Below are positions 9,002-59,332 of a stretch of DNA of 64,000 nt, in pieces. Origin of the DNA: Candidatus Zixiibacteriota bacterium (GTDB lineage: Bacteria > Zixibacteria > MSB-5A5 > UM-FILTER-46-8); NCBI GenBank assembly GCA_014730175.1, contig WJIR01000026.1:1027-65026 (forward strand). Direction: 5' to 3'. The first letter of the stretch is position 1, and each line of letters starts with the position of its first letter. The notes under the pieces were generated by a model. That model was not told the DNA's origin, ran no database searches, and was given only the letters and a program-made list of their open reading frames with translations. The position numbers and the translations under genes were made by a program.

Positions 9002-9096
9002 CAAACCGCTCTGTGGCTGGAGAAAAAAGCTACATACAAACTTCGGAAAAATGGGCTTGTTATAATAGAGGTATAATTCGCTCGAAAGGAAATCTT

Positions 9097-9792
9097 ATGG
9101 ATGTTGAGTTAATGGCGATTACGCCCAATGGTGAAGATGTTATTGAAAAAGCCTGTAGAACTTGCTATCTCAGTTTCCACAGGTATAAGCCACCGGATTC
9201 AACATGGGATTTGATCCGGAAAGTGATACGTAAGGGGCACCATTCAGTGCTTGAACATGCCGCAGCCACTTTCAGGATTAAAGGCGGAAGCCGGGTTTTC
9301 ACCCACGAAATGGTCAGGCATCGTTTTGCATCGCCTTCTCAGGAAAGCCAAAGGTATGTTTGTTATGCAGACAAACCGAACCGTAAAAAGACCAAGGATT
9401 ACAACTGTATCATTCCCGATACCGTTAAAAACTCGTCGTTGGATGGAAACGGCGCCAGCGCATCCGAGAAGTTTTCGCGAATTATGCAGGATTGTTATGA
9501 GCTATATGAGCAGATGCTTCAGGCGGGAGTACCGCCCGAAGATGCCCGTTACATACTTCCCGGCGGCACCGAATCGGAGATAGTTATCACAGCCAATTTC
9601 CGGGAGTTACGTCATATTTTCATATTAAGATGTAATCCGAGGGCTCATTGGGAGATTCGAAGGATTTGTTTGAAGATGTTGGAAATTATGAAAAGGGAGG
9701 CGCCTATCGTATTTGCTGATTTTGAGATAGACCGGGAGACGGAGTCGGCACACCTGATTCAGGAAGAGCAGGAAGAGAAGGTAGAAGTATAA
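9097..9792 (+). CDS. thyX: FAD-dependent thymidylate synthase ThyX
   Basis: RHRFASPSQESQRY matches the ThyX RHR...S...R motif. Start chosen at the ATG at 9097 with an AAAGGA RBS; the 9013 ORF start adds a non-conserved extension. Confidence 0.9.
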   Translation: MDVELMAITPNGEDVIEKACRTCYLSFHRYKPPDSTWDLIRKVIRKGHHSVLEHAAATFRIKGGSRVFTHEMVRHRFASPSQESQRYVCYADKPNRKKTKDYNCIIPDTVKNSSLDGNGASASEKFSRIMQDCYELYEQMLQAGVPPEDARYILPGGTESEIVITANFRELRHIFILRCNPRAHWEIRRICLKMLEIMKREAPIVFADFEIDRETESAHLIQEEQEEKVEV

Positions 9793-9885: not shown

Positions 9886-12126
9886 ATGCAACTTAGTCAG
9901 AATTCAATTACCGTATTGGAAAGAAGATATTTGGTGAAAGATGAGAACGGTAAGGTGATTGAGGATCCGAATCAGCTTTTCAGAAGGGTAGCTAATGCCA
10001 TTGCGGCTCCGGATGAAAACCTCGGCGCTGACAGGGATGAAGTCGGTAGAATCGCTGAGAAATTCTACGAGATGATATCCAGCCTCGATTTTCTCCCCAA
10101 TTCCCCTACTCTTATGAATGCGGGTAGGGAATTGGGGCAGTTGTCCGCATGCTTTGTTATACCGGTGGATGATTCCATGGAATCGATATTTGATGCGGTT
10201 AAAGCGGCGGCGTTAATCCATAAGTCGGGAGGCGGCACCGGATTCTCATTCTCGCGCTTGAGACCTGCCGGTTCGCAAGTAGCTTCCACATCCGGGGTAG
10301 CTTCGGGTCCCGTTAGTTTTATGAAAGTCATCAACGCCGCTACAGAGGCAGTAAAGCAGGGCGGAACGCGCCGCGGTGCCAACATGGGAGTCTTAAGAAT
10401 CGACCATCCCGATATCATGGATTTCATTACTGCAAAATCCGACCTCAGCGAATTAACGAACTTCAACATATCGGTTTGCGTTACCGATGATTTTATGCGC
10501 GCCGTCGAGTCCGACGATGACTACCCACTCATAGACCCACGCACCGAGGACGCTTATTTCGTGGATGGAAAACCGGTAAGGTTGAAAGCGCGTGAGGTGT
10601 TCGAGACCATAGTAGATCAAGCCTGGATGACAGGCGAACCGGGTGTGATACTTATCGACCGGATGAATGAGGATAATCCGGTGAAGAAAATCGGGCTTTA
10701 TGAAAGCACCAACCCTTGCGGCGAACAGCCATTACTTGCTTATGAGAGTTGCAATTTGGGTTCGGTTAACCTCGGACAGACGTTAACTGCGGTTGTCGAT
10801 TCCGAGAATCGCTCCTCTATGTATCGATATGAAATCGACTGGAATAACTTGAAGAGAACAGTCAGAAGCGCGGTTCATTTTCTTGATAACGTAATCGAAG
10901 CCAATAGATATCCACTCAAGGCAATCGATGAGTCCACCAAAGCCAACCGAAAGATTGGTTTGGGGGTGATGGGCTGGGCTGATATGCTCTTCAGGCTGGA
11001 GATTCCGTATAATTCCGAAAAAGCACTGCAACTCGCTGAGAAAGTTATGAGTTTCATTCAAGAAGAAGCCCACGCCGCTTCGTCCGAACTGGCAGGTGTC
11101 AGGGGTGTATTTCCCAATTGGAAGGATTCAGTATATAATAGCCCGGGAACCCCTTCCAAGCGGATGCGCAACTCCACGGTCACCACCATTGCCCCTACCG
11201 GTACTATAAGTATCATAGCGGGAGTCTCTTCCGGTATCGAACCCGCCTTCGCCCTGGCATATACCCGTAATGTTATGGACGAAACAAAACTGTCCGAGAT
11301 TAATCCCATTCTCGAAGCAAAGGCTAAAGAACGAGGTTTTTACAGCGAGGAGTTCGTGAGGAAACTGGTAGAGAAGGGCTCCATCCAGGATTTCGATGAA
11401 GTACCTGAGGATGTAAAAAAGATATTCGTTACCTCCCATGACATCGAACCGGAGTGGCATATCAGGATGCAAGCGGCGTTTCAGAAGCATTGCGATAATG
11501 CCGTATCCAAGACAATCAATCTTCCCAATCACGCCACCAGGGAAGATGTCGCTGATGCCTATCGTCTCGCATATAAGCTAAAATGTAAAGGCGTGACTGT
11601 TTATCGGGACGGTTGTCGTAAGGGGCAGGTGCTATCGGTAAGCAAAGAGGAAGAGGAGAAACTACCGAGTAGAAGAAGAACTATCGAACCGCGCCCTCAG
11701 GTACTTACCGGAATAACTGAAAAAATCAAAACCGGTTATGGCGTGCTATATGTCACCATCAATATGCTGGATGGTAAACCTTTTGAGGTTTTTGCGCAGA
11801 TCGGTAAATCGGGGCATTCGACTATGGCGGACACGGAAGCAATGGGTAGACTTGTCTCCCTGGCGCTTCGTTCCGGTATCGGTGTGAACGATATTATCGA
11901 TCAACTCCGAGGGATAGGCGGTGCAACTCAGGTTTTCGAAAACGGCGGACTGGTGAAATCGATTCCAGACGCTATAGCTAAAGTACTTCATCATCATTTC
12001 GGTAATGGCGAAAAACCGGAACCGGAACATGATATAGAAACCGACCTTTGCCCGGAATGCAATTGTAAAATGGAACATGACTCCGGATGCATCGTATGTC
12101 GCGGTTGCGGCTATTCTCAATGTTGA
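9886..12126 (+). CDS. nrdJ: Class II (adenosylcobalamin-dependent) ribonucleotide reductase NrdJ
   Basis: 746 aa with an RNR catalytic core (the NPCGEQ Cys/Glu region) and a C-terminal CPECN...CIVCRGCG zinc ribbon typical of monomeric NrdJ. Confidence 0.9.
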
Positions 12127-13592: not shown

Positions 13593-15557
13593 ATGCAGAA
13601 ACAGATTGTAACCCTTATAGTTGTAGCCTTAGCTGCATTTACAATGCTATTGGCCCCTTCATCGGTATTGGCAATAGATGGGGCAAAACCAGTACCGGGC
13701 GTCGCTCCGGGTAACTATGATCCGACTGGTGTAATCGGTTCGATTGAACCTTTCGCCAGCGAAATCGGAATGATAAGTTGGTCGATCGATGGATTGGGAA
13801 CCACCGCTTCCTCAGGTATTATCAAAGTAGATAAGCCGGAAGATGCCACAGTTCGCAGCGCTTACTTTTTCTCAGCCACTACCGGTTTCACGGATTATCA
13901 GCTTCAGGACGGCGACGTTCAGTTGGAAGGCAACAACATCGTATGGGATGACGAGTTGATGAGTAGCATCGAATCGTACAACTATATGGCTGATGTTACC
14001 GATATCGTCGCTCCCATAGTCGATGCGGCTCCGGCGGGAATCGTTGAGTTGACTATCAATGAGAACAACTCTGCAAATATCGACGGCGAAGTATTGGCAG
14101 TGATATTTGATGATCCCAATGTAACCGAAACCGCTACGATAGCTTTGTTATTCGGCGCCCAGGCAATTGAAGGCGATGAATTTAATATCGGATTGGCTGA
14201 GCCGGTAACCGAGGAAACCAATGTTTATATGTCATTAGGTATTTCTTATGGTTATCAGCCTACCGAACAGGTAAGCCACATCGATGTTAATGGAGAACGT
14301 TTAACTTCCTCTGCTGGTGGCCAGGATGACGGCGAAGACAACAACGGCGCGTTGATCACAGTCGGCGGCATTGATGATAGCATGGACAATCCTCCGGATC
14401 CTTATGGCGAACCGGATACTCCAAGATACGACGATGAGTTATATACTTTGAATCCTTATCTGGAAATTGGCGAGACTTCTATAAATGTTTACACCATCAA
14501 TCCTTCGGATGATGACAATATATTCTTCGGCGCATTTCATATCTCCGGCGCTGCCGTTGTCGGTGAAGGTGCGGTGTTGACACCGGAATATGCCGAGAAG
14601 AATGTTGGCGAGATGCACATGATCACCGCTACTCTGCAGGACGATGATGGTAACCCGATCGCTGATCGCGAAATCAATTTCCACATCGTGGATGGTCCCC
14701 ATTCACCCATGGATTACACTGATGCCACAAACGAAGAAGGTAAGGCTTTCTTCGAATATGAAGGAATGATGGAAGGCAGCGATATAATTATGGCTGATTT
14801 CATCAATTCTCAGGGTGAATACCAGGAAGCTGAAAATGAAGCGGTTGTCGATTGGATTACCGGTGGAGATCTCTGTTGTGATGTAGAGCTTTCCCCGGAT
14901 GATGGCGATCCTGTCATCGTTAATCCTCCGGACATCTTCAGGTTCACTGCTACTCTGTGCAATCCCAATGAAGAACCGATCTTTACCGATTTCTGGACCG
15001 TAACCGAAAGCATGGGTGAACGTTGGGAAATCTTGGTCCATACCGATGTAGAAGTCGGCGGCGACGATTGCAGAAACGGACGCTTCATTCAGTGGATCTG
15101 CGGACAGATTGAGCCTTGCGTTTACGTCTACACTGCTTATTGCGGTGACTATGAAACCGGTGAAATCTGCGATTCCGCCAGTTTCGAAGTAGTTGTCTTA
15201 AACGGTGAAGGAATCACTAATATGGGTAATGTTGAAGAGCTGTGGCTCTCTGAAGGAGGCTTCAATAGCGAAGAATTCGCGATGGAATCCCCGGCCGAAT
15301 ACACCTTAAGCTCCAACTATCCAAATCCGTTTAACGCTCAGACCAACATCAGCTTCTCCCTACCCGAAGCCGGTAATGTTCGTTTGAACGTTTATAACTT
15401 ACTCGGACAGAATGTAGCTACTCTGGTTGATGGTAATATGTCTGCCGGCCAGCATACTGTAAACTGGGATGCTGCCAATCATGCCAGCGGCGTATACCTT
15501 TACAAACTGCAAGCTAACGATCAGGTAATCACCAAGAAGATGCATCTGCTGAAGTAA
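13593..15557 (+). CDS. Secreted T9SS cargo protein with shared Cys-rich domain and C-terminal T9SS sorting domain
   Basis: Signal peptide (LAPSSVLA), a Cys-rich module (CCDVELSPDDGDPVIV...AYCGD...CD), and a T9SS CTD (NYPNPFNAQT...LNVYNLLGQ...VNWDA...SGVYLYKL). Confidence 0.8.
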   Translation: MQKQIVTLIVVALAAFTMLLAPSSVLAIDGAKPVPGVAPGNYDPTGVIGSIEPFASEIGMISWSIDGLGTTASSGIIKVDKPEDATVRSAYFFSATTGFTDYQLQDGDVQLEGNNIVWDDELMSSIESYNYMADVTDIVAPIVDAAPAGIVELTINENNSANIDGEVLAVIFDDPNVTETATIALLFGAQAIEGDEFNIGLAEPVTEETNVYMSLGISYGYQPTEQVSHIDVNGERLTSSAGGQDDGEDNNGALITVGGIDDSMDNPPDPYGEPDTPRYDDELYTLNPYLEIGETSINVYTINPSDDDNIFFGAFHISGAAVVGEGAVLTPEYAEKNVGEMHMITATLQDDDGNPIADREINFHIVDGPHSPMDYTDATNEEGKAFFEYEGMMEGSDIIMADFINSQGEYQEAENEAVVDWITGGDLCCDVELSPDDGDPVIVNPPDIFRFTATLCNPNEEPIFTDFWTVTESMGERWEILVHTDVEVGGDDCRNGRFIQWICGQIEPCVYVYTAYCGDYETGEICDSASFEVVVLNGEGITNMGNVEELWLSEGGFNSEEFAMESPAEYTLSSNYPNPFNAQTNISFSLPEAGNVRLNVYNLLGQNVATLVDGNMSAGQHTVNWDAANHASGVYLYKLQANDQVITKKMHLLK

Positions 15558-15614
15558 TTATAACAGCAAAACTCTCGAGGAAGGAAATGTACCTACCTCG
15601 AGGAAGAAAGTTGA

Positions 15615-15645
15615 GCGCCGGGCAGCACGTCCGGCGCTTTTTATT
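15615..15645 (+). terminator. Rho-independent terminator (GCGCCGG-loop-CCGGCGC followed by TTTTTATT)
   Basis: GC stem plus T-run 58 nt after the stop of the 13593-15557 gene. Confidence 0.65.
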
Positions 15646-15756
15646 GCCTTTGAAAATAGCAGTTAACTTTAACTCATATCATTAGCTAATAATTTTGCCA
15701 GTTGTCAAAAATCGATTTTGTATTATATTGCCTTTGAATAATCTTCTTTATGAAAG

Positions 15757-18339
15757 GTGGTAAAAATGCACAGGTTACTGATGATTTTAATATTCTTTAC
15801 GCCCCTGCTATCATTCGCAGGAAATATCGATCCCAACGGCGATATTCCCTTGCATAGAATTTTAGCCGAACGAGGGCAAACGGTAGATGAGATACTCGCG
15901 CAAAATACATTTGATTTTTCGCAGAATGATATTGATCCCGGTGAAATTCCGGAGGGCGATTACCTGGGATGGTTGGCTTTCACGCCAGATGGCGAGAGAA
16001 TACTGGTAACTAATCGAGTAACGGATAATGTAACGGTATTTGATTGGTCAACTATGGAAGTGTTGACCAATATCAATGTGGGTACTTATCCGGGTGGAAT
16101 CGGTGTAACCGATAATTATGCAGTGATCGCCTGTGCTTTTAGCGATGAAGTATACATTATCGATTTGGATGATTACAGCGTTGCCGGCATATTCGAAACC
16201 GGCGAGCAGCCCTGGGTGGTGAGGATAAGTCCCGACGGTAGAAAAGCTTATGTTGCCTGCGATATCGATAATGTCTGCGAAGTAATAGATTTGGAGAACT
16301 TAATCCACACGGACACATTAGAAGATTTCCCGATCTGGTTGGTGAGTTGGGGATTTAATTCCGAAAATGCACGTAATACTTTTAGTTTTTCTCCGTTTGA
16401 GATTACGCCGGACGGGAATCATATAATGGTAAGCGATGGCGAAACGAATGTTCATTTTATAAATGTTGATACCGGCAACATAGATTACACGGTTGAAGGA
16501 ATCGAAAGCTGCTGGACATTAGGCCTATCCGGTGACGGTTCAAAATCAGTTGCGGTTAGTTCTACTGATCCTGCTGTAGCATATCAGATCGACCTCACCA
16601 CATATCAAGTCACAGGAAGTGTAAGCATAAGCGGATACAGGTTAAGTACTTATGAAGTTGCCGTTAATCAGGATGGTTCCAAAGCTTTCCTGGGGATAAA
16701 CAACAACTCCAGCGCATTCGTTCGATTCGAGACCTCTGATTTCACGGTTTTGACACAAACATATACACCATTCTGGATCGGAGTATCACCGGATCATTCT
16801 TTGGCAATTGGAGGGCAGTATCGCTTTTCGATCCTTGATTTCGAAACCGAGACTTTGCTGGGGCAATACCAGGGTAATTCTCAGTATTACGGAGCGGTAT
16901 CCAAGGTTGGATTGCGCGCGGTGGGACATGATCCATATCGCCATGAAGGTGTTTATTTCTACGATTACACCGATGATTATCCCGATTATCTGGGGACAAC
17001 CAATTCCGGACTGGACCCCGAAGGCGACGCTCCCAGACGATTAGCGATAGCGCCGGATGGGTCTAAAGTGGTTGCCGCTAATGTTCTTTCCGATAATATT
17101 TCCATTATAAGTCTGAGTACGTATGAAGTTGAAGCTATCCTACCGATCGGCGACAGAGTGCAAAATGTTGCTATCACTTCGGATTCACGCTGGGCGGTAG
17201 TGTGTGGATTCAATTCCAATTCCGTATTTATCATTGACCTTGAAACCAATACAATAGCAGCGGAAGTTTCGGCAGGTTCTCGCGCTGGCGTTGTTAGCAT
17301 AGCTCCCGATGACAGCTATGCCTATGTTGGTAATATATCAGCTAATACTTTATCGGTCATAGAATTGGATGGGGAAAACAGTTTTGAATATAATGAGTTA
17401 CCTATCGGTGTAATTGGTGTGGTCTGGGCGGCGTTTGGTGTCAGCAGCGATGTTGAATACAGCCCCGATGGCGAACATGTTCTGGCGACTGCCTCATTCG
17501 ACGACCTTGTTTACGTATTCGATACCGAATTCCACGAAATAGTCGCCACACTTCCCACCGGGGATTTTCCGATTCAGATAGCGTTTGACGGAACCGGTGA
17601 ATATGCGGTAGTAACCAATTACTTCACTGATAATTTCACATTGATGCATATCGATGGTGAGAATTCGACCTCAATCGGAACATATTACAGTGGCGATGCT
17701 CCATTAAGGCTGGCATATAATTCTATTTTGGACGAAATAGGTATCTGTAACTACAGCGATAAAACCCTGGTAAACATCGATCCTCAAACCGGAGATCTTA
17801 TTGACACCGACTATTATACTAACCACGGCAGTTTGATTCAGGCGATGTTCGATGAGAACGGAGAGCCAATCGTTCTTGTAAGCAGCGGAAATCTACCTGC
17901 GGCGTTGATCAAAGCCGATGATGTGGTTGAGATGCCTGCCGGTCCGACATACTTCGATTATAACAGAGAGGCTCAGGTGGCTGCCGTTTCCATGCCGGGA
18001 CCCGATTTTGTAACTATCGTCAGTTGGCAGGAAACCGGAATAGGCGAGGTGAAGGATATCGATTTAAACTTACCGACAGAAATAGCCATCGGAGACTGTT
18101 ATCCCAATCCATTCAACCCGGAGGTGAATATCGAGTTTCATCTGCCGACTGCCGGTGATATTTCTTTGCGGGTGCTCAACCTTACCGGTGAAAAGGTAGT
18201 AACGTTGGCTGAAGGGAATTATACCGCAGGATCGCATAGAATCCTTTGGGATGCCTCCGATCTTGCCAGCGGCATATATTTACTTAAATTGAGCAACGGA
18301 TCGATATCTACAACCAAGAGGATCACATACATAAAGTAA
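15757..18339 (+). CDS. Secreted beta-propeller repeat protein (YVTN/lactonase-like repeats) with T9SS C-terminal sorting domain
   Basis: Signal peptide, repeated roughly 40-aa DGSK/DG..AYV repeats, and a C-terminal CYPNPFNPEVNIEF...VLNLTGE...WDASDLASGIYLLKL T9SS CTD. Confidence 0.8.
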   Translation: MVKMHRLLMILIFFTPLLSFAGNIDPNGDIPLHRILAERGQTVDEILAQNTFDFSQNDIDPGEIPEGDYLGWLAFTPDGERILVTNRVTDNVTVFDWSTMEVLTNINVGTYPGGIGVTDNYAVIACAFSDEVYIIDLDDYSVAGIFETGEQPWVVRISPDGRKAYVACDIDNVCEVIDLENLIHTDTLEDFPIWLVSWGFNSENARNTFSFSPFEITPDGNHIMVSDGETNVHFINVDTGNIDYTVEGIESCWTLGLSGDGSKSVAVSSTDPAVAYQIDLTTYQVTGSVSISGYRLSTYEVAVNQDGSKAFLGINNNSSAFVRFETSDFTVLTQTYTPFWIGVSPDHSLAIGGQYRFSILDFETETLLGQYQGNSQYYGAVSKVGLRAVGHDPYRHEGVYFYDYTDDYPDYLGTTNSGLDPEGDAPRRLAIAPDGSKVVAANVLSDNISIISLSTYEVEAILPIGDRVQNVAITSDSRWAVVCGFNSNSVFIIDLETNTIAAEVSAGSRAGVVSIAPDDSYAYVGNISANTLSVIELDGENSFEYNELPIGVIGVVWAAFGVSSDVEYSPDGEHVLATASFDDLVYVFDTEFHEIVATLPTGDFPIQIAFDGTGEYAVVTNYFTDNFTLMHIDGENSTSIGTYYSGDAPLRLAYNSILDEIGICNYSDKTLVNIDPQTGDLIDTDYYTNHGSLIQAMFDENGEPIVLVSSGNLPAALIKADDVVEMPAGPTYFDYNREAQVAAVSMPGPDFVTIVSWQETGIGEVKDIDLNLPTEIAIGDCYPNPFNPEVNIEFHLPTAGDISLRVLNLTGEKVVTLAEGNYTAGSHRILWDASDLASGIYLLKLSNGSISTTKRITYIK

Positions 18340-18491
18340 TAAGAGATGGCTGCAGGTCACCGGCGCTATCCCCACGCATACCGTCAGCGTTCCAGGGCTG
18401 CCCGGCGGACTCTTAAGTTAAAATAATCTGCAGCGTACCATGAATGATGCAGGACGGGCTGAAACCCGTCGTAATTAAAAATAGTGATCCT

Positions 18492-18511
18492 CCCCGCGTT
18501 AAAACGCGGGG
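18492..18511. terminator. Hairpin CCCCGCG-ttaaaa-CGCGGGG between convergent genes
   Basis: Inverted repeat seen in the sequence; no clear U-tract follows it. Confidence 0.35.
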
Positions 18512-18550
18512 TCTCAAAAACTCATCCAGGCTTTTCCTTTTTGTTAATAG

Positions 18551-18576
18551 CTTGGCGGGAGGAAACTCCCGCCAAG
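18551..18576. terminator. 11-bp stem hairpin with GAAA tetraloop (CTTGGCGGGAG-gaaa-CTCCCGCCAAG); probable bidirectional terminator
   Basis: Perfect inverted repeat 22 nt from the stop of the minus-strand 18598 gene, with T/A-rich flanks. Confidence 0.5.
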
Positions 18577-18597
18577 CATTTTGAGCCTTAATTTACT

Positions 18598-20154
18598 CTA
18601 TTTGAGTAGTGTGATTTGCTTTGCGATTACCTTATCCCCGGCTCTGAGCCTGTAGAAATAAAGACCGCTCGAATAACCGGAAGCATCCCAGTTGACACTA
18701 TGGTATCCAGCTTGCATATAGCTGTCTGCAAGTGTTTCAACTTCCTGACCGAGCAGATTATAAATCGAAAGTTTAACATTTGTATCGGAAGGAAGATTGA
18801 ATCGTATATTGGCTGAAGCGTTGAACGGATTGGGGTAACTTTCCATAGACATCGCATTCGGTGTTTCCGCTTGTTGCTGAGAATTCCATCCACCACTCAA
18901 TGTCCAATCGGAGCTCCCGCCATTGCGAGGAGCGCCTATCACATTGAAGTCGAACATAGCCGTATCACAGGCAACGTTGCTCTTCTCCCCGCAGAATGCT
19001 ATATAGTCATACGTACCGGTAGGCGCATAATTGGGAACCTGTTGAACCAGATGGGCATCCAGAGTCTGGCCGATATCAACGAAAGTACCGGAGAAATCCC
19101 AAAGTTCATAAAATTCGCCTTGGAAGTTCACCCCGACCCAGATATCGGTTATCATCGGTTCATCGTCAGGATTGACGATTATTCCGGTCAACCCGAACTC
19201 TCCACCCGGGGGAACATCGACCGGATAGTTATCAGGAATCATATCCACCTGAGGGCAGACATCACATTGAACCGGTCCGTACTCGCTCAATTTAGTATCT
19301 ACATCCGCAGAAGTAGTTGTTACCGTGCTGTCAGGAATATAGAAGTCCATTGTCATCGTATCAGGCCAAGTTCCGAATGTCAGCGTACCGTTCTCATCGA
19401 GAATTAGGTCGAGATCGGCAAAATCACCGGTTGCTTCATATCCATCACCAGTATTGATAACTCCGCCTTCGAACACTATCAACGTATCAGTGTCCCAGGC
19501 AACCTTCGCGACAATATTAGCGGTATCCGAACCATAAATTCCCTGATCCGGATCGTTTAACGCGGTAAGGCTAAATTCGTCAAAATAAAACCTTGCCTGC
19601 AAATGAAGACTGTCCTGCACCTCGCTATCTTTCTCCTCGTCTCTCCATTCGGTCGATCCTTGAAACTTCGCCTCTCCTTCGGCATCCGCCTCGCATCTGG
19701 AAGCATAGGTGAAAAGATTGTGATCCACCTTACCTACCAAGCGATCACTATCTTCCCCAAATTCTTCCCACCATGCCTTTACATAGGCGTATGCGCGCGC
19801 CGCGTGCGTACAGGGGAACGGCCCTTCTTCGGATTCAGCGATTACATCAGGGAAATACGCTTCATCATCGCCGGAGCCGGAAGCGCCGCAACACCAGTAA
19901 CCTGCATCAGCCCATGCGTATGTTTCCGCAATCGGGTCTGGTCCTTCAAGTATCGACCATATTCCGACTCCGATTCCAACGACAGTCACCGTGATAGCAA
20001 CAACTGTTAATACTGCCGGTTCTTCGCCATCATTTTGAGTTTCCGGAAGTTCGTGCTGATGTGGCTGCGATGCCAGAGCAATGTCCGGAGCGGTAATTGC
20101 TCCGCACAAAAACACAATCACGAGCAGCGACAAAAGATAAATGTTCTTTTTCAT
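18598..20154 (-). CDS. Secreted T9SS cargo protein with shared Cys-rich domain and T9SS sorting domain
   Basis: Signal peptide (MKKNIYLLSLLVIVFLCGAITA), a Cys-rich module (CDVCPQVDMIPDNYPVDVPPGG...AFCGE...CD), and a CTD (SYPNPFNASANIRF...SIYNLLGQ). Confidence 0.8.
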   Translation of the reverse strand: MKKNIYLLSLLVIVFLCGAITAPDIALASQPHQHELPETQNDGEEPAVLTVVAITVTVVGIGVGIWSILEGPDPIAETYAWADAGYWCCGASGSGDDEAYFPDVIAESEEGPFPCTHAARAYAYVKAWWEEFGEDSDRLVGKVDHNLFTYASRCEADAEGEAKFQGSTEWRDEEKDSEVQDSLHLQARFYFDEFSLTALNDPDQGIYGSDTANIVAKVAWDTDTLIVFEGGVINTGDGYEATGDFADLDLILDENGTLTFGTWPDTMTMDFYIPDSTVTTTSADVDTKLSEYGPVQCDVCPQVDMIPDNYPVDVPPGGEFGLTGIIVNPDDEPMITDIWVGVNFQGEFYELWDFSGTFVDIGQTLDAHLVQQVPNYAPTGTYDYIAFCGEKSNVACDTAMFDFNVIGAPRNGGSSDWTLSGGWNSQQQAETPNAMSMESYPNPFNASANIRFNLPSDTNVKLSIYNLLGQEVETLADSYMQAGYHSVNWDASGYSSGLYFYRLRAGDKVIAKQITLLK

Positions 20155-20634
20155 TTTACTCTCCTTGCTTGGATTTTTATTTCTCAGAATCAGGTTCTAT
20201 ATAAACAAGGTGGGTAACCTCCTCGTTACAAATCACGAATCCCGACTAATATTGTAAACTATAAAAATAAGAACCGATTGTCAACAAATAAAATAATTTA
20301 TGTTATTTATATAATCGGCGAGAGGGTATTGGAGGAAAATAGTTTCACTAACATCCTGTTAAGAAGTTATTAATGTTCGCGATTCGGACTATGACGATTC
20401 CACTCCATGATAGTATACAGGAGAGAGATAATGAAATATAGGGGGATTATGATAATGGCCATGATGAAGAATAACGGTTCATCGCTTCCATGCGCATCAA
20501 AGTAGGACTTGAATGTTCCGTAAATGAAATCGTGAAGGATTACCGCCACATTCCAGGCAGCTATGATCAGCAGGATTCTCTTCCAGGCTTACAGCAGATA
20601 TTTTCCATAGAATCTCCTCGTTACAGCCGCATTG

Positions 20635-21186
20635 TTAATTCCGCGGAGATCTTCTGTGTTCCCTTCGCCATTTATAGGGCGGAATAAATTCTTTGACCTC
20701 TGAATTCTCAGCCGTCTCCAGTATTCGCTCCGCGAGTTCCGGGAATCCGTTATCGCCATAGTATGAAACAGTCTCATAAGCCAGTCCCGCTTCGATCAAT
20801 TGTATGGAGAGCAGCTCCCCATCCACGAACACGTGCGCCAGCATTCTACCATAACGATCATCTTGATAAGGTAAATATGAGATCACCTCCGCATTATGGA
20901 GTAAAGCCGCCGTATAAGCGGACGCTTCTCTCCCAAAGGATTGATCCTCGTGGAATCCATGTTCTGGATGCGAAATCTCAGGCGTATCCATACCCAGTAC
21001 CCTTATCCCCTTGCCCCTGTACTCGAAAGTATCGCCATCATCGAGTATTATCTCCGATTTCTCGATCAAGATCACCTCCGATCCATCAGGTATGAATACT
21101 ATATCCTTTTTAACTGGCGATCCGCAGGAACTGAATATTATGGAGACAATAAGCAGGATAAATATTTGTTTGGAAATTATCTTCAT
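20635..21186 (-). CDS. Thermonuclease (staphylococcal-nuclease-like, SNase) lipoprotein
   Basis: Lipobox IFSSCGS after the ATG at 21186. The SNase core contains GKGIRVLGMDTPE...FGREA...RMLAHVFVDGELL. Confidence 0.7.
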   Translation of the reverse strand: MKIISKQIFILLIVSIIFSSCGSPVKKDIVFIPDGSEVILIEKSEIILDDGDTFEYRGKGIRVLGMDTPEISHPEHGFHEDQSFGREASAYTAALLHNAEVISYLPYQDDRYGRMLAHVFVDGELLSIQLIEAGLAYETVSYYGDNGFPELAERILETAENSEVKEFIPPYKWRREHRRSPRN

Positions 21187-21315
21187 TCTTTTCCTCGATT
21201 GAACACACTCTTTGATTGTAATTAACGGGCAATATAATGCCCTCACGGAAGGAGGCAAAATAAAAAGAGGAGGGAATTAGAAATCCCTCCTCCTGCAAAT
21301 AGATCTGTATTCTTT

Positions 21316-24279
21316 CTATTTCAACAAAGTCATCCGTTTGGTGAATACCTTATCCCCTGCAGTAAGTTTATAGAAGTATACTCCGCTGGAATAGTTAGAG
21401 GCATCCCAGGCTACCGAATGCTCTCCGGCATCATTGTATCCGTCAAACAATGTTGCCACGTGCCGTCCTGCGAGATTGTACACGTCCAATTTCACGTTCG
21501 CACTCTTAGGTAAGGTATAAGTGATGCTGGTCTGAGCATTGAACGGATTCGGGTAGTTTCCGACCAATGAATATTGCGAGGGAACGGGTTCACCGATAAA
21601 GTCGCCTTCCAAAAACCAGCTATCAGCGGGATTGTTCGTCAAGGCACCGGAAACCGTGAAATCGAATTGCACCGAATCACACTTATCATCCGGACGATCA
21701 CCGCAATAGGCAATGTAAATGTAAGATCCCTGTGGAGCGAATCCCGGTACTTGCTGGTTGGTATGAGCGTTTAGGGTCTGTCCCGGAGCGAGAGAGAGAT
21801 TATTATAACCGAACTGCTGATAAAAATCTCCATCGTGAATGACTCCGCCCCAGACATCGGTTGTAATAGATGTGTCGCAAACATTGCCGATAAAGCCAGT
21901 CAAACCGAAACTGCCGCCCGGCGGTACTATAACCGGATCATCATCGGGGATCATGTCAACATCGCAGCAGCAATCAGGCTGGGGTAGCTCCCATGTAATT
22001 ACGACATCGTCAACATACCATCCGTCTCGGTTAGTCGAGGAATTCGTATCCAGCCTGAACCTCAGGAGAAAGTCTGTAACACCAGCGAAACTGTCAAGAG
22101 AGTGTATCGCCTGTACAAATGATTCCTGCGTGCCGGTTATGGAGCTGCCGATCTGCGTCCAGTTGTTACCGCCATCATCGGAGCCCTCGATGTAAATATA
22201 ATCGGAACCGCTCTGGAGATTATAGCGATGATAGAATGATAGTTGAATGTTCGACGCATCGGTGAAATCCAATCCCGCTTTCATCGCCATCCAGCAGTCC
22301 GCATTATTAGCGTAGTTCCCTTGCGGGCTGTCATGAAAAGCGAGATTACCGGAATTGGAATGTGTTGCCGATAATCCCCATCTATCATTATTACCACCGG
22401 TTTCCCAGTTGAAGGGACCATTTTCGAAATCATCGACAAACTGTGGAGTGGATGCTTCGGTAATGAACCTGTTATTAGGCGCTCCCACCGGATAAACCTC
22501 ACTCAGCCCATTAGTCTTTTCGGCGTAAACATAGTAATAAACAGATTCACCCATTCCCGGTGTTGGGATGTCAGCCGAGTATGTATCCTGATTATTGGTC
22601 ATCTGGATGGAATTGTAATTCTGAGAACCGTTGTGATTCCAGTAAAGAGTCACGCTGGAAGGATTAATTCCCTCCGAACTGGTTATCTCTCCCGAAAAAT
22701 AAGCTTCGTTAAGTGGAGCCACGTAGGGAAGAGGAACCATGTCGAAGACGATATCCCCTTCCGGATGATAAAATATCGCTTTGGTGGTATTAACCACGCC
22801 CCATCCGTAAGTATTATTTGGGCTGTCCGTATTATCCGCGGTCGCCATCAAAGCCTCACGCACCATCATCGGGGTCCAGTTGGGATGAGCCGAAAGTACC
22901 GCACCTGCGCTTCCGCCCACCAACGGTGTTGAAAGTGATGTGCCACTGGCGTCAGTGAATCCGCCGAGGTCATACGGGTTAGCGCAATCGGTGTCAACGC
23001 CTCGAGCAGTCACTTCAGGCTTAGTGCGATCGTCGTAGGTGGGACCGCGCGAGGAAAAACTGGCTATCTCGCCTTCGGAGTTGACCGCGCCGCAGGCAAT
23101 AACGCTATCCCCGTCGGCAGGAGCAATTAGCGAACCGTTACCCATCCAGCCTTCATTGCCCATTGCTGTGCAGACTGCTATACCATTATATGCGGCGAGG
23201 TCTGCGGCAATCGTAACAATCGTTGTGTTACCATCGAGATCGGAATACTCGTAATCTCCCTGGCCTTCATCGAACCAACGGTAACCGAGTGAGGCTGAAA
23301 TCACTTGTGCCCCGATGGAATCCGCCCACAGAGCGGCAGCAGCCCAGTGATCCTCTTCAATATGCCTTTCCTGGGAAACATCCTCGGTTTTTCCCAGCAG
23401 GAACTCCGCATTAAAGGAGGGACCGTAAAGAGAACCGGAATACTCGCCGCCCAGCGCTGACCAGGTCAAAGTTCCATGGTTTGGCTGATCCCAGGGATCG
23501 CCGTTTTCCCAATCGGTGTCCCCATCGCCCATTACGAAATCCCATTCCGCAATCAAGCGGTTGTCATTGAATATCTCATCGAATGCTACATGACCTTTGC
23601 GGTAACCGGTGTCGAGCATGCAGATAATCACGCCGGTTCCGTCGAATCCCAGCTCATGAGCCGGAGGAACATTTATCTGAAGTAGCTGCGATTCCGAAGG
23701 TCCATAATTGTAGCTGTAATCGCTGATATCGCCGAATCTCGAATATCTATCAGCGCCCTCGATCCTGTCTATCTCTTTCCCCAGCGCCTTTACCCTCTCT
23801 ATTCTCCGAACGAAAGGCAAGGATGAAATAGCCTCAATATTCCCTGTATCGATGTATGCGGAGACAGCGTTCAACCATTTTACGCGGTGCACTATTTCCG
23901 CACCTGAGTTTTCTGTCTCGTTAACATATTCATTATTCACAGGCAGATCGAGAAAATCGACAAGATTATCTCCACGTGTTTTAGCGCGCCTCTTTAACGC
24001 AGCTTCGGTAAGTGCATTCTCAGCTTCAGCCAAAGCATTATCCAGCTCATGCTGAGATGATATTCCCTTGTCCGTGAAATAAATCCAGACCTTTACTCTT
24101 TCGGTATCGAATTTATCAAGTAATTGAGGTTCGATAACCTGCTCAGATTTGGGAAGATAGAGTTTTCTCTGGGGTGCGGCTTTATCTGCGGAAAAACCAG
24201 CGGATGCCGCCCATGTTATTGAAAGCAGCATAATAACTAATATGACACTCCAGCGAGAACATGACATATTTTTGAACAT
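21316..24279 (-). CDS. Secreted subtilisin-like serine protease (peptidase S8) with shared Cys-rich domain and T9SS sorting domain
   Basis: Catalytic triad motifs DTGY (Asp), HGTLT (His) and GTSLSTP (Ser). A signal peptide, the CCCDVDMIPDDDPVIV...AYCGD module and the NYPNPFNAQTSITY...VYNLAGR CTD are also present. Confidence 0.9.
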   Translation of the reverse strand: MFKNMSCSRWSVILVIMLLSITWAASAGFSADKAAPQRKLYLPKSEQVIEPQLLDKFDTERVKVWIYFTDKGISSQHELDNALAEAENALTEAALKRRAKTRGDNLVDFLDLPVNNEYVNETENSGAEIVHRVKWLNAVSAYIDTGNIEAISSLPFVRRIERVKALGKEIDRIEGADRYSRFGDISDYSYNYGPSESQLLQINVPPAHELGFDGTGVIICMLDTGYRKGHVAFDEIFNDNRLIAEWDFVMGDGDTDWENGDPWDQPNHGTLTWSALGGEYSGSLYGPSFNAEFLLGKTEDVSQERHIEEDHWAAAALWADSIGAQVISASLGYRWFDEGQGDYEYSDLDGNTTIVTIAADLAAYNGIAVCTAMGNEGWMGNGSLIAPADGDSVIACGAVNSEGEIASFSSRGPTYDDRTKPEVTARGVDTDCANPYDLGGFTDASGTSLSTPLVGGSAGAVLSAHPNWTPMMVREALMATADNTDSPNNTYGWGVVNTTKAIFYHPEGDIVFDMVPLPYVAPLNEAYFSGEITSSEGINPSSVTLYWNHNGSQNYNSIQMTNNQDTYSADIPTPGMGESVYYYVYAEKTNGLSEVYPVGAPNNRFITEASTPQFVDDFENGPFNWETGGNNDRWGLSATHSNSGNLAFHDSPQGNYANNADCWMAMKAGLDFTDASNIQLSFYHRYNLQSGSDYIYIEGSDDGGNNWTQIGSSITGTQESFVQAIHSLDSFAGVTDFLLRFRLDTNSSTNRDGWYVDDVVITWELPQPDCCCDVDMIPDDDPVIVPPGGSFGLTGFIGNVCDTSITTDVWGGVIHDGDFYQQFGYNNLSLAPGQTLNAHTNQQVPGFAPQGSYIYIAYCGDRPDDKCDSVQFDFTVSGALTNNPADSWFLEGDFIGEPVPSQYSLVGNYPNPFNAQTSITYTLPKSANVKLDVYNLAGRHVATLFDGYNDAGEHSVAWDASNYSSGVYFYKLTAGDKVFTKRMTLLK

Positions 24280-24569
24280 AATTCCTCCTCGGGGAAGTTT
24301 AGTTGAAATTAGTTGTCATCGGTTAGTTTGATTTGAGAAGAAAAACCGGATTCGGTGACAAGTTTATAATAGCTTATCACGTCTATTACCGAATTGTTTC
24401 TATTTGCTTAAGGTAAAACAAATATAATGAATTTTGTTCCGAATGGAAAGCTATTTTCAATACGGTTTATTTTTGAACCCGCTCTGATTTTACAACCACC
24501 AATAATACAATTCAGGTGAAATAACCGCGCGAAGCAAAGAAGCCTCTTAGGTGTTGACAGGATATGAGC

Positions 24570-25808
24570 TTATATATCAATCAACTTATCCCCCGCCGTA
24601 TATTCAGCGACATTAACGGCGTCAATATTCATTAAAGAAGAGATAACATCCTTGATTTTAAGAGAGTTATTCTCGATAAGCTCGATTTTCTTGCGAATAT
24701 CTGCGGGGAGTTCTTCTTCGCTCTTGAGTAACAGGAGCTGGGCTGCTCCCAATACCACCGAAAGTTGATTGTTTACATGATGATTTACGGTAGCCGCTGT
24801 TAACCTGACCAAACCGGCTTTATCCGCATCCAGAAGTTTTCTATAACCAGCGAGGATTAAATGCATCGAAGCGGAATGAGCGAAATCGGGATTAAACCGA
24901 TGCACCAAATCATCGATATTCTTCTCGACTTCTATAGGCGGTCTTCTGAAAAATCCGATGATGCAGAAACCGAAACTATTCTTTTTTCCCTTTAGAGGAT
25001 AAAAGAATAACTCGCGCGCATCATATTTAGCCAGTTCGGAAATCAGCGATTGGGGAAGGTCGGCTTTTGTTAAGGACGCACACCATTTTGACTGGACCAC
25101 CCTCATATCAAACTGTGCTCTCGGGATGGTCAGGTCTGCGCTGAACTCCGACTGAATAGCTCCGGAAGTATCTTCGGAACTGAAGAATAACTCGGCATTG
25201 CTCTCACCCGGGAATAGATAGCCTATTGCACACATCACCGGCGCCGCAATCTTGGTTATTTCTTTAGTAAACAATTCAATCGTGTGCCGCGGGCTTTTGC
25301 TTATTTTAATAGTCCCAACGGAATCCGGTTTACCGATGCCGATTTCCCTTGCCGCCGCTGAGGAGATTAAGTTTACAAATATATCGATTAGATCCTTCTC
25401 GGACTTCTGTAACTTACGGGAATCACGCGATAGGATTACCAGCAGCCCATAGTTAAAATTACCGAATATCAATCCTCTGCATTTTGCTTTCAGCTTATCT
25501 TTCCCGGCAAGGATCAAATCGGCGTTATCTATATCCAGTTTGTAATTTTCTCCGGCTATATGCTCGGTCGACCGGCGATAATTATTAAGAATATTATTTA
25601 GCTCTCCCAGATATTCCTCATTGCCTACTGTCGAAATGGTCGGTTCTCCCGATCCGTCAATCACCAAACAACCTACGGAGCACTCGGGTAGCTGTTTGGC
25701 AAGTAATTCACACACCTCCCCTGTACCGACGCTAATAGGTAATTCAGCGATAGCCCTTGATGCGAGCGAGACGGCTTCGAACTTGGATGCAGGAACAATT
25801 TCGTTCAT
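24570..25808 (-). CDS. GAF-domain sensor protein with a C-terminal histidine-kinase DHp-like domain but no ATPase domain
   Basis: The C-terminus (VNHHVNNQLSVVLGAAQLL...) resembles a HisKA H-box helix and the ORF ends about 60 aa later. The N-terminal two-thirds is GAF-like. Confidence 0.55.
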   Translation of the reverse strand: MNEIVPASKFEAVSLASRAIAELPISVGTGEVCELLAKQLPECSVGCLVIDGSGEPTISTVGNEEYLGELNNILNNYRRSTEHIAGENYKLDIDNADLILAGKDKLKAKCRGLIFGNFNYGLLVILSRDSRKLQKSEKDLIDIFVNLISSAAAREIGIGKPDSVGTIKISKSPRHTIELFTKEITKIAAPVMCAIGYLFPGESNAELFFSSEDTSGAIQSEFSADLTIPRAQFDMRVVQSKWCASLTKADLPQSLISELAKYDARELFFYPLKGKKNSFGFCIIGFFRRPPIEVEKNIDDLVHRFNPDFAHSASMHLILAGYRKLLDADKAGLVRLTAATVNHHVNNQLSVVLGAAQLLLLKSEEELPADIRKKIELIENNSLKIKDVISSLMNIDAVNVAEYTAGDKLIDI

Positions 25809-26463
25809 TTCTATAACACAGCTAAATTTTTCCTCTGTTCCTTGATACGGATTATCTCCACCGTTGTTCGTGCTATTGACGGAGCAGGTTTAATACCCCG
25901 AAAAATCACCAGAGGATTTACCAATTGCACTTACCCCTTTACAGGTTCGGAGTAGATCCCTTACATGATCTCCATAGCCGACTTATCATTTGCCGGGTTC
26001 CAGCGTAAAGGGAAGAAGACTTATAATGCTCGAAAAATAGAGATTAATGCTCGGATGTCAAGTAGAATATAGGTTTGAGCATTATACATCGGTTCTTTGG
26101 ACCATTAACCACAAGTAAATCATTGAGTTTCAAAATCATTTTTGTTAATCTCTGATAGCAATATCTGCCTGACAAAACGCCTACTTTCATACAAACGAGA
26201 TGAGATTCGACAAATATTGAAATCAGCGACACCAACTTTTCCTTGACAACAACCGCCGAACTCGTTTCTTAATATATATAGAATTTGGTCATTCGATATG
26301 TTTGGCCGAAATTTCTTGACCTGTCCCGAACTATGCGGTGTTTTCCAGTGGGTATAATCGCAACATTAGCTCAGGAAAGCGCTATAGTAAATCTTCATGT
26401 ATCTTAGCGATCCAGGAGCATTAATATTTAACTAATGACGCGGATTTTTCAGCGAGGTTAGAA

Positions 26464-27621
26464 ATGAGACACACGGTTTTTACAGTACTGTGTTGCCTGA
26501 TTATATATGGGTGCGGTAACGCAATGCAGGTGATTGATTTCGAAGGACTACCGGATTATTATTATTATTACGGGGGTAATGAGAATATCGATGGTTACTA
26601 TCCCGGGCTTGAGTTCGGACCACACGCAGTGATACTGGACAGCGTTATCTACGGATATAATTCCGAAGGATACCCACCTCATTCCGGTAACTGCGTCCTG
26701 GCGACAATCGGCGCTTCCTATACGCGAGTTGATTTCTCTATTCATACCAATCATGTCGGAATGTGGTACACTTCGTATTTTACCTTTCATGTTGAAGCGT
26801 ACGATGGCAATGATAATCTTTTAGTTTCCACTACGGCTCCCGCAAATTACGGAAGCACAGATTTTGTCGAGGTGAATTCGGTAGGGATTGCTTATGTTAT
26901 ATATCATAATTCGGGAGATCTATTCGTTATCGATGATTTCGAATACGAGGATGAGCCCTGCTGTCTGGATATCGATATGGAGCCGGACGAAGACCCGGTA
27001 ATTGTCAGCCCGGGGGAATCATTCTGGTTTACCGGCTCTATTTTAAATATGTGTGTATATCCGGTCGTGACGGATATCTGGTTGATGGTGGATGTTCCCG
27101 GATATGGACTGTATGGTCCCCTGGCAAGAAACCTTAATCAAACCGTAGAACCCGGGCAGATCTTGACCCGCCACATGGCTCAAGCGGTTCCCCTCGAAGC
27201 TCAACCGGGTGTCTATAGTTATGTCGCTTATTGTGGTGATTTCCCGAATTATCTGTGTGATGGAACTTCGTTTCCATTTACGATTGTAGAAGGTTCGTCA
27301 TCAGAAGGCAGCAGCACATGGCATAATAGAACCGCTTTTGATTTCAAGGCGGCTCCCGATAAATCAAGTCTGATGGACAGTTACCCCAATCCTTTCAATT
27401 CCCGAACAAACATCCAATTCGAGCTAAGCTCCGAATGTCATGCACGACTGGAGATTTATAACATGTTGGGGCAAAGAATAACGGTTCTTGTAGACGAATA
27501 CTTAAATGCAGGTGAGTACTCGGTGCAATGGGATGCGGGCGACCTTCCCAGCGGCATTTATCTGGCAAGACTTTATGAGGATGGCAAGACTACTACCGTT
27601 CGGATGAGTTTAATAAAGTGA
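26464..27621 (+). CDS. Secreted T9SS cargo (lipo)protein with shared Cys-rich domain and T9SS sorting domain
   Basis: Signal/lipobox (LIIYGCGNA), a Cys-rich module (CCLDIDMEPDEDPVIV...AYCGD...CD), and a CTD (SYPNPFNSRTNIQF...IYNMLGQ). Confidence 0.8.
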   Translation: MRHTVFTVLCCLIIYGCGNAMQVIDFEGLPDYYYYYGGNENIDGYYPGLEFGPHAVILDSVIYGYNSEGYPPHSGNCVLATIGASYTRVDFSIHTNHVGMWYTSYFTFHVEAYDGNDNLLVSTTAPANYGSTDFVEVNSVGIAYVIYHNSGDLFVIDDFEYEDEPCCLDIDMEPDEDPVIVSPGESFWFTGSILNMCVYPVVTDIWLMVDVPGYGLYGPLARNLNQTVEPGQILTRHMAQAVPLEAQPGVYSYVAYCGDFPNYLCDGTSFPFTIVEGSSSEGSSTWHNRTAFDFKAAPDKSSLMDSYPNPFNSRTNIQFELSSECHARLEIYNMLGQRITVLVDEYLNAGEYSVQWDAGDLPSGIYLARLYEDGKTTTVRMSLIK

Positions 27622-29469: not shown

Positions 29470-30072
29470 CTATACAGGAATCTCGATCTGCTTCGATTGG
29501 ACGTAACGGTAGAGTTTGCCGATCAAATAAGCTTTGCCCAATGCCGCCCAAAAAACCGTAAAGAACCATCCAATTACCAGTATAATCAAACCTAATGATG
29601 CTATTATCTGCATTCCGAGTGATAGCAACACCACTACCAGCACATCGGATATGTTGTCTTTGGTGAAATCGATTATTTTTTGAAAATCGAAAGCTGCCTT
29701 AAAGTCGTTAGTTAGCGCGAAATTTGCCATCAGATAGGGAATAATTAGCGCAACCGCAATCCCGTAAATTCCCCCAATACATGCTCCCAGACAAGGGAGA
29801 TTGTAGAAAAGCAATCCAGGGATGGAATATATGATCAGTACGATAAAGAACATAAGCCCTTTATTAAGTTTCTCCGTTAGATTGTCCCATTCCGGCAACG
29901 GTATTTCTTTATTCTCATAGGCGTTACGAGTCAATTCCAATAGGTATCCGAGCAGAAAGGGAATTCCAATGACCACGCATGACAATAATGCGAAAACAGC
30001 TCCAAGAACGAATTTGCCTGGCCAGGCTTTATCCTCGAACATGAACGTGAATGCTCTACCAATGTTATCCAT
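29470..30072 (-). CDS. Hypothetical polytopic membrane protein (DUF4013-like)
   Basis: 200 aa with 4-5 TM segments; the family call is tentative. Confidence 0.45.
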   Translation of the reverse strand: MDNIGRAFTFMFEDKAWPGKFVLGAVFALLSCVVIGIPFLLGYLLELTRNAYENKEIPLPEWDNLTEKLNKGLMFFIVLIIYSIPGLLFYNLPCLGACIGGIYGIAVALIIPYLMANFALTNDFKAAFDFQKIIDFTKDNISDVLVVVLLSLGMQIIASLGLIILVIGWFFTVFWAALGKAYLIGKLYRYVQSKQIEIPV

Positions 30073-42790: not shown

Positions 42791-42883
42791 ATTATTACCA
42801 CAAATCGCTTGTAATTCCGAATTATTATTCCTACATTCTTATCCAGGAATATCCATAAACACTGCTTGAAAAGGAGTGATGTT

Positions 42884-59170: not shown

Positions 59171-59332
59171 TAGCCCGTATAATTCATAAAAGCCAGCAAA
59201 CCGTAGCCGAAGGCTTGTCCTTCGGGGATTTTACAACAATAACAATTTACGGTCTGGAATTCGGGGGCGAGAAAAGAGCCGGAAGCGCAAGGCTTCCGCT
59301 ACCGATTAGGGACTTTATGGATAATCCGGGCT
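59171..59332 (+). repeat. Intergenic structured repeat, copy B (about 88% identical to 8501-8656)
   Basis: Direct alignment to copy A. Hairpins are CCGAAGG-cttgt-CCTTCGG and CGGAAGC-gcaag-GCTTCCG. The copy abuts the stop of the minus-strand permease gene. Confidence 0.65.

Follow-up and report, generated by a model that had tools for sequence, protein, structure and literature searches.

Small beta-rich domains, among them GEVED (PF20009), PKD and the CHU_C-associated immunoglobulin (Ig) domain, are found directly N-terminal to Por_Secre_tail on many type IX secretion system (T9SS) cargoes. In RgpB of Porphyromonas gingivalis, an immunoglobulin superfamily (IgSF) domain, a disordered linker of 9 residues and the T9SS C-terminal domain (CTD) follow in succession, with the IgSF domain proposed to be a spacer or insulator and the length of the linker critical for glycosylation (PMC4804311). 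The sites at which the CTD is cleaved lie in the flexible linker ahead of it and have been mapped in Prevotella and Porphyromonas (PMC11969387, PMC4804311). Here we describe a module that occupies the corresponding position in four proteins, designated A to D, encoded in a 64-kb stretch of DNA, hereafter the window, from Candidatus Zixiibacteriota bacterium (contig WJIR01000026.1). The module represents a large sequence family without a name; the family is new, whereas the kind of domain and the position it takes are familiar. It is probably, if by no means certainly, an autonomous extracytoplasmic Ig-like domain acting as a stalk or spacer between the enzyme and its cell-surface anchor.

Four copies of one module ahead of T9SS sorting domains

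The region from 13593 to 27621 contains five open reading frames (ORFs) with a type A CTD, encoding A, W, B, C and D. A six-frame hidden Markov model (HMM) scan of the 64 kb detected exactly four copies of the module, in A, B, C and D, and no module match in W (Table 1). A sequence-only reading of this DNA had proposed that the four proteins have a domain in common, and the copies are indeed homologous, aligning over ~110 columns with 23 invariant positions and pairwise identities of 29-52%. Copies B and C share 52% identity. Copy A, which carries 8 Cys, is the most divergent, being 29-34% identical to the other three; even so, the weakest pair, A and B, gave a BLASTP E=2e-14 as a single comparison. 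In copy A the GQ-L--H--Q-VP segment is lost, with DDCRNGRFIQWICGQIEPC in its place, and the stretch ahead of the W-strand described below is longer. Three of the intervals first assigned to the copies (14874-15200, 18935-19272 and 21640-21972) translate to the motif then described, but the fourth, 26969-27293, falls in the wrong frame, where stops abound, and must be replaced by 26959-27288.

The four proteins had been regarded as paralogous. This is correct for their C-terminal ~220 aa only, as the N-terminal parts are mutually unrelated with no similarity detected, and the common part is a cassette consisting of the module, 31-39 aa (counted from the end of the module core to YPNPFN) and the CTD. 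The assignment of a T9SS CTD after each copy stands, with E-values of ~1e-10 to 1e-11 for PF18962 and of 2e-11 to 2e-13 for TIGR04183. With W included, all five proteins pass the curated cut-offs, at 40-47 bits for PF18962 (cut-off 27) and 39-50 bits for TIGR04183 (cut-off 23). The CTD of W is 41-49% identical to the other CTDs in the window and that of D 43-46%, so that the CTD of W is no more divergent than that of D. The NCBI labels of the module proteins (MBD3232265.1, MBD3232267.1, MBD3232269.1 and MBD3232271.1) go no further than 'T9SS type A sorting domain-containing protein' or 'S8 family serine peptidase'. ORFs of 112-178 aa are also listed antisense to module-coding regions, at 14703-15041 (-), 18871-19407 (+) and 21839-22195 (+), and these are most likely spurious output of mechanical ORF listing.

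Table 1. Coordinates of the module-bearing proteins, their modules and CTDs, and of related ORFs
Feature	Coordinates	Strand	Description
Protein A	13593-15557	+	654 aa; weak sub-threshold Big_1 Ig-like match
Module copy A, core and W-strand	14874-15263	+	core 14874-15200 (aa 428-536), WLSEGGF 15243-15263
Linker of protein A	15264-15317	+	NSEEFAMESPAEYTLSSN; between W-strand and CTD
CTD of protein A	15318-15554	+	aa 576-654; PF18962 E=1.2e-11, TIGR04183 E=2.3e-13
Protein W	15757-18339	+	860 aa; YVTN/lactonase-type beta-propeller (Pfam, NCBIfam), CTD 18100-18336, no module
Protein B	18598-20154	-	518 aa
Module copy B, core and W-strand	18886-19266	-	core 18937-19266 (aa 297-406), WTLSGGW 18886-18906
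CTD of protein B	18601-18837	-	aa 440-518; PF18962 E=7.2e-11, TIGR04183 E=6.5e-12
Protein C	21316-24279	-	987 aa; S8 peptidase with InhA-like MAM domain
Module copy C, core and W-strand	21598-21972	-	core 21649-21972 (aa 770-877), WFLEGDF 21598-21618
CTD of protein C	21319-21555	-	aa 909-987; type A
Protein D	26464-27621	+	385 aa; small, lipoprotein-like
Module copy D, core and W-strand	26959-27339	+	core 26959-27288 (aa 166-275), degenerate WHNRTAF 27319-27339
CTD of protein D	27382-27618	+	aa 307-385; PF18962 E=4.6e-10, TIGR04183 E=2.2e-11
CTD-less module ORF, L011	L011:260-1795		
CTD-less module ORF, L012	L012:2852-4360		
CTD-less module ORF, L031	L031:757-3408		metagenome contig

Predicted fold and extent of the module

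Structure prediction, suggested with the sequence-only reading as a check on one segment and its CTD, returned a confident Ig-like/CARDB-like sandwich. The AlphaFold2 model of the module, with copy C as the modelled sequence and an alignment of 7 sequences, has a predicted local distance difference test (pLDDT) score of 92.9 and a predicted template modelling (pTM) score of 0.81, and contains eight beta-strands, at residues 6-12, 17-19, 24-33, 39-49, 52-64, 69-77, 85-95 and 99-110. The best Foldseek match is the CARDB domain of PF1109, with a template modelling (TM) score of 0.68, followed by fibronectin type III (FnIII)-like domains of GH3 enzymes, and sequence identity to the closest solved CARDB, FnIII-like and Ig-like folds is <=18%. 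As modelled, the module is a generic Ig-like/E-set beta-sandwich that falls in no named sequence family, with a predicted CARDB/FnIII-like topology in which strands A, A', B, C, C', E, F and G are joined by a ninth, short one with the sequence W-x-L-x-G-x-F.

This ninth strand was seen when the module, linker and CTD were modelled together from 36 sequences (pLDDT 91.4, pTM 0.65). The CTD is seven-stranded in this model, an extra short strand is present at residues 123-125, on the W-x-L motif, and pLDDT drops, to 72-75, only over model residues 131-150. No solved two-domain structure matched the two-domain model, and the pTM of 0.65 suggests that the packing of the module against the CTD, as predicted, is not fixed. 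A W-x-[LIV]-x-G-x-[FW] motif is found 7-8 aa past the sandwich in ~100 of 129 relatives. It also follows internal copies remote from a CTD (L006 copies 1 and 2, L003 copy 1, P0007, P0087, P0147 and P0006 copy 1) and the CTD-less copies in L031 and L011, and the W motif is therefore part of the module. The length of ~110 aa first given thus describes the core, from which the module runs ~18 aa further through the W-strand, making a full domain of ~125-130 aa. From the W-strand to the first CTD strand there are ~12 model residues (126-137) and from the W motif to YPNPF 14-18 aa, consistent with a flexible linker of roughly 10-18 aa. Between the module end and YPNPF there are 27-40 aa in all but one of 129 relatives (128 of 129), the median being 30 aa.

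A large family without a name

Neither Pfam-A (2025 copy) nor NCBIfam 20.0 has a model that matches over the module in the four window proteins, and when 72 diverse module sequences were scanned singly against both databases at E<=1, no family covered the module. That the module corresponds to no named domain, as had been supposed, is thus confirmed for the four proteins and for the 72 members. A stray match to Ig_VWA7 occurred in one member (E 0.0065), and the FxLYD domain (NF038353) matched 4 of the 72 with a best E of 0.0077, below its cut-off and with no match for member 1; a remote superfamily link between the module and FxLYD is possible. The CARDB HMM (PF07705) matched none of the 72 sequences at E<=1 and nothing over the module in the four full proteins, and neither CBM (carbohydrate-binding module) nor CARDB models lay over the module segment in any of the 72 members. 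Sequence-profile searches of the PDB with the module gave nothing below E 0.1, and the 72-member profile found no gingipain or PPAD chain at E<=10.

The exhaustive search of representative sequences was made with a 228-position profile that includes CTD columns, and its top list is therefore biased to proteins with both module and CTD; proteins that have only the CTD swell the totals of 331,047 hits and of 1,251 hits at E<=1e-30, which do not give the family size. Scans with module-only peptide patterns were used to offset this bias. The profile search yielded at least 150 proteins at E<=2e-66, each representing one cluster at 50% identity, and together with four earlier matches these make 154 proteins, all 154 of which contain the module. 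A word-indexed protein search returned only 5 and then 3 matches, even with the 72-sequence profile, and is no guide to the size of the family or to co-occurrence. All four of the further representatives that bear an organism name are from Zixibacteria, and accessions in the same range suggest that three of these come from the metagenome-assembled genome (MAG) to which the window itself belongs. The RecN encoded in the window is 100% identical to an NCBI protein assigned to candidate division Zixibacteria. In genomes, the module-only patterns located at least 10 copies in a MAG that is labelled Ignavibacteria, one of them an orthologue of the copy C module at 88% identity. They also located two copies in one Zixibacteria MAG and single copies in MAGs of Glassbacteria, Gemmatimonadota, Calditrichota and LCP-89. 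The family is centred on Zixibacteria, in agreement with the lineage-specific secretome family that had been envisaged, and has scattered copies in other candidate phyla of the Fibrobacteres-Chlorobi-Bacteroidetes (FCB) type.

The passengers present in 77 full-length relatives include Peptidase_S8, M14, C1, C25, FG-GAP, beta-helix, cupredoxins and Omp28, and also CBM56, CBM96, a PETase-like hydrolase and beta-propellers; an M28 peptidase (L031) is likewise fused to the module. The module is, accordingly, a promiscuous C-terminal appendage on unrelated passengers. As a clean candidate, it merits an entry of its own in Pfam or NCBIfam, and in Zixibacteria and related uncultured phyla hundreds of proteins now listed as 'hypothetical' or 'T9SS type A sorting domain-containing' would then be better annotated. 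The module is also a marker of the degradative secretome that these organisms expose at their surface, with many peptidases among it.

Position relative to the CTD

In the biased top list, the module ends 106-121 aa from the C-terminus in 143 of 154 proteins. The module-only patterns gave a similar picture, with a CTD ~30 aa downstream at 23 of 24 metagenome loci and a module plus CTD protein at 12 of 14 genome loci. The earlier statement that the module always lies ahead of a CTD describes this prevailing arrangement, but there are CTD-less, internal and tandem copies. In L011 (Glassbacteria), L012 (Gemmatimonadota) and L031, the module is C-terminal and the ORF stops 8-22 aa past it, with no CTD present downstream in any frame. 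L011 and L012 have a distinctive upstream motif, SGAGDDDFYLIKLSSEH, in common. Two modules are present in L003, modules in tandem in P0006, P0019 and P0146, and an internal copy in P0007. The 1244-aa protein encoded at L006:3173-6904 (+), on contig CAZLVS010000050.1, consists of three repeats of a ~260-aa unit, a module and a W-strand, followed by one terminal CTD; the ~260-aa unit has no Pfam match. This protein shows that the module moves with its passenger as a repeat unit and not only with the CTD. Conversely, a CTD without a module is present in W and in neighbouring ORFs on the minus strands of L003 and L030.

Cysteines and conserved residues

The module had been described as Cys-rich with two disulfides, and this proved to be true of a sublineage rather than of the domain. 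The four window copies agree on Cys in just three columns and, in the 159 family sequences used for all residue statistics, only the Cys of AYCGD (position 93) is widespread, being present in 80%. Where Cys93 is absent it is mostly replaced by Ala or Ser, and position 93 shares its phase with Y87, Y89 and A91, a pattern that a buried core residue would show. Cys5 and Cys101 are present in 38% and 35%, respectively, with both present in 53 sequences, Cys5 only in 7, Cys101 only in 2 and neither in 97, and all seven members with only Cys5 have Cys35 instead. This covariation is good evidence for a Cys5-Cys101 disulfide in the members concerned. Cys6, found in 28%, stands where other members have a Val or Ile that faces the core; Cys93 may be its partner. 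One Cys is the commonest state (71 of 159) and 22 members (14%) have none, so that an abundance of Cys is a trait of the sublineage to which the window copies belong.

The near-invariant polar residues are D42 and Q76 (each 158/159), N33 (156/159), D102 (142/159) and D13 (124/159). A Cys-Gln thioester formed by the invariant Q76 and C93 was considered and dropped: with Q76 ending strand E beside the E-F loop, and C93 on strand F at its far end, the two should be at opposite poles of the predicted structure. Most copies without C93 have Ala or Ser in its place, which also disfavours the thioester.

Comparison with pre-CTD domains and proposed role of the module

The IgSF domains of the gingipains RgpB and Kgp and of PPAD resemble the module in being Ig-like sandwiches with a first strand split into A and A' (PMC4804311). 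In the gingipains, as here, the domain lies between a catalytic passenger and a T9SS CTD, with a short disordered linker and a CTD whose orientation is not fixed, and the linkers are comparable, with 9 residues in RgpB and ~12 model residues after the module. The gingipain domain has the proposed spacer or insulator function and, by analogy, the module would likewise stay on the mature protein after PorU cleavage. In contrast to the gingipain IgSF domain, which is ~85 aa, the module is ~125 aa, has no detectable sequence relation to it and has its own motifs (DM-PD--PV, TDVW, Q-VP, Y-Y-AYCGDYP and W-L-G-F), and in Zixibacteria it is the default on cargoes of dozens of unrelated types. CARDB (PF07705; Pyrococcus furiosus PF1109, 2kl6/3idu) has the fold in common with the module, but identity is 16-17% and the HMM is not matched. 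The FnIII domains of RbmA and the FnIII-like or Ig-like domains that serve as linkers in GH2, GH3 and dextranase enzymes are <=18% identical, come from other taxa and have no link to a secretion signal. GEVED, PKD and the CHU_C-associated Ig domain have the same habit as the module, but their models match no module region in hmmscan searches of the four proteins and the 72 members. The module itself reveals no new mechanism and is of modest interest to the T9SS specialist; it does provide a second, independent case of the arrangement of Ig domain, short linker and CTD known from the gingipains, which could be used to ask if a pre-CTD Ig domain is a general need for correct T9SS processing.

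If the module is such a stalk, the precursor would pass the inner membrane via Sec. Sec signal peptides, read by eye from the sequence, are present at the N-termini of all four proteins, those of A, B and C having a hydrophobic core followed by an A-x-A-type site and that of D a lipobox-like IYGC. The module would then fold in the periplasm where, in the Cys-rich sublineage of the window, Cys5-Cys101 and probably Cys6-Cys93 would staple strand A to the F-G hairpin. Recognition of the CTD would lead to export through the T9SS, a PorU-type sortase would cleave between the W-strand and the first CTD strand, in the flexible, short linker, and the module would remain as the C-terminal, membrane-proximal, anchor-near domain of the mature protein. 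As a stalk it might keep the passenger and the CTD from mutual interference and provide a uniform structural context for cleavage and anchoring. Several observations weigh against this reading. No T9SS machinery genes (SprA/PorV/PorU/GldKLMN) are encoded within the 64-kb window, and no paper that mentions both Zixibacteria and T9SS was found in the searched literature; secretion, cleavage and anchoring are for these reasons extrapolated from Bacteroidota. The gingipain IgSF domain is not among the top structural or sequence matches to the module, so the parallel is one of architecture and not of homology. The conservation of polar residues also exceeds the need of a passive spacer and could reflect a putative metal- or ligand-binding site.

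Such a site would be in keeping with a binding domain rather than a spacer, one for carbohydrate, matrix or Ca2+-dependent adhesion that tethers diverse enzymes to a common target. We consider this unlikely, and only tentatively suggest, as examples of that target, an extracellular polymer or a polysaccharide on the cell's own surface. Binding is favoured by the near-invariance of D42, Q76, N33 and D102 and by fold neighbours that include RbmA, which scaffolds the biofilm matrix, CARDB in complex with di-metal ions (3idu), the O-antigen-binding domain of Wzt (6o14, 5hno) and an agarose-binding CBM (8wac), and the CTD-less, internal and tandem copies are as in CBMs and adhesin repeats. Yet no CBM or CARDB model matches the module segment in any of the 72 members, and a pure binding role leaves the fixed spacing between module and CTD unexplained. 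This spacing and the tight linkage would both follow if the ~220-aa cassette as a whole were an extended, lineage-specific T9SS signal, its Ig module being recognised by the secretion, shuttle or sortase machinery and needed for export or attachment, and the module is indeed present on 4 of the 5 CTD proteins of the window and on most neighbouring CTD proteins in related loci. We nevertheless judge this distinctly unlikely, as W has the same type of CTD, no more divergent than that of D, without a module; CTD-only neighbours exist in L003 and L030; some internal copies are far from any CTD and three module proteins have none; and the pTM of 0.65 with the lower pLDDT of the linker gives no sign of a fixed module-CTD unit. 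Of the functions offered by the sequence-only reading, a stalk is hence the better supported and a T9SS recognition module is disfavoured, again by W.

A broader proposal is that, in Zixibacteria and some related candidate phyla, the sorting signal has been extended to a standard ~220-aa cassette in which the module is either required for sortase processing or surface attachment or binds the cell's own surface glycan. This is unlikely, but would, if true, explain why most CTD cargoes of the lineage have the module at a fixed spacing. That the module arose by tandem duplication and divergence from the CTD, likewise a beta-sandwich that ends in G-x-Y-x-Y-...-G-D, is hardly credible. A short motif is common to the two, QGSYIYIAYCGD in the module and SGVYFYKLTAGD in the CTD, and the module HMM has secondary matches inside three of the four CTDs that are consistent with each other but non-significant. 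In an hhalign profile-profile comparison of 159 modules with 155 CTDs, however, the two aligned over 19 columns and in another register, with E=0.14 and a probability of 0.4%, which effectively refutes a duplication. A stalk or spacer between enzyme and anchor is thus the role that we favour for the module.

Neighbouring genes and other features of the window

The five type A cargo genes are packed into 14 kb, on both strands, and with their neighbours they look like a small secretome island. An SNase-family nuclease (20635-21258) is encoded among them, as is an ORF at 24570-25808 with a weak match to HisKA, below the Pfam cut-off, and no detected ATPase domain.

Elsewhere in the window, a 359-aa ORF at 48932-50011 (-) has no Pfam match at E<=1e-5. 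An MttB-family methyltransferase ORF and a gene for a fused permease/OpuAC glycine-betaine-type ATP-binding cassette (ABC) transporter are present at 42866-44341 and 59331-60938; the methyltransferase ORF is uninterrupted, covers positions 29-495 of the 500-position profile and has no in-frame stop. The two hint at quaternary-amine metabolism. The thyX gene (9013-9792) is followed directly by a 746-aa ORF (9886-12126) with a Cys-rich tail, the translation of which, judged by eye only, resembles a ribonucleotide reductase. A CHASE2 sensor fused to an adenylate/guanylate cyclase domain is encoded at 30212-32347, adjoining a DUF4013 membrane protein gene at 29470-30072.

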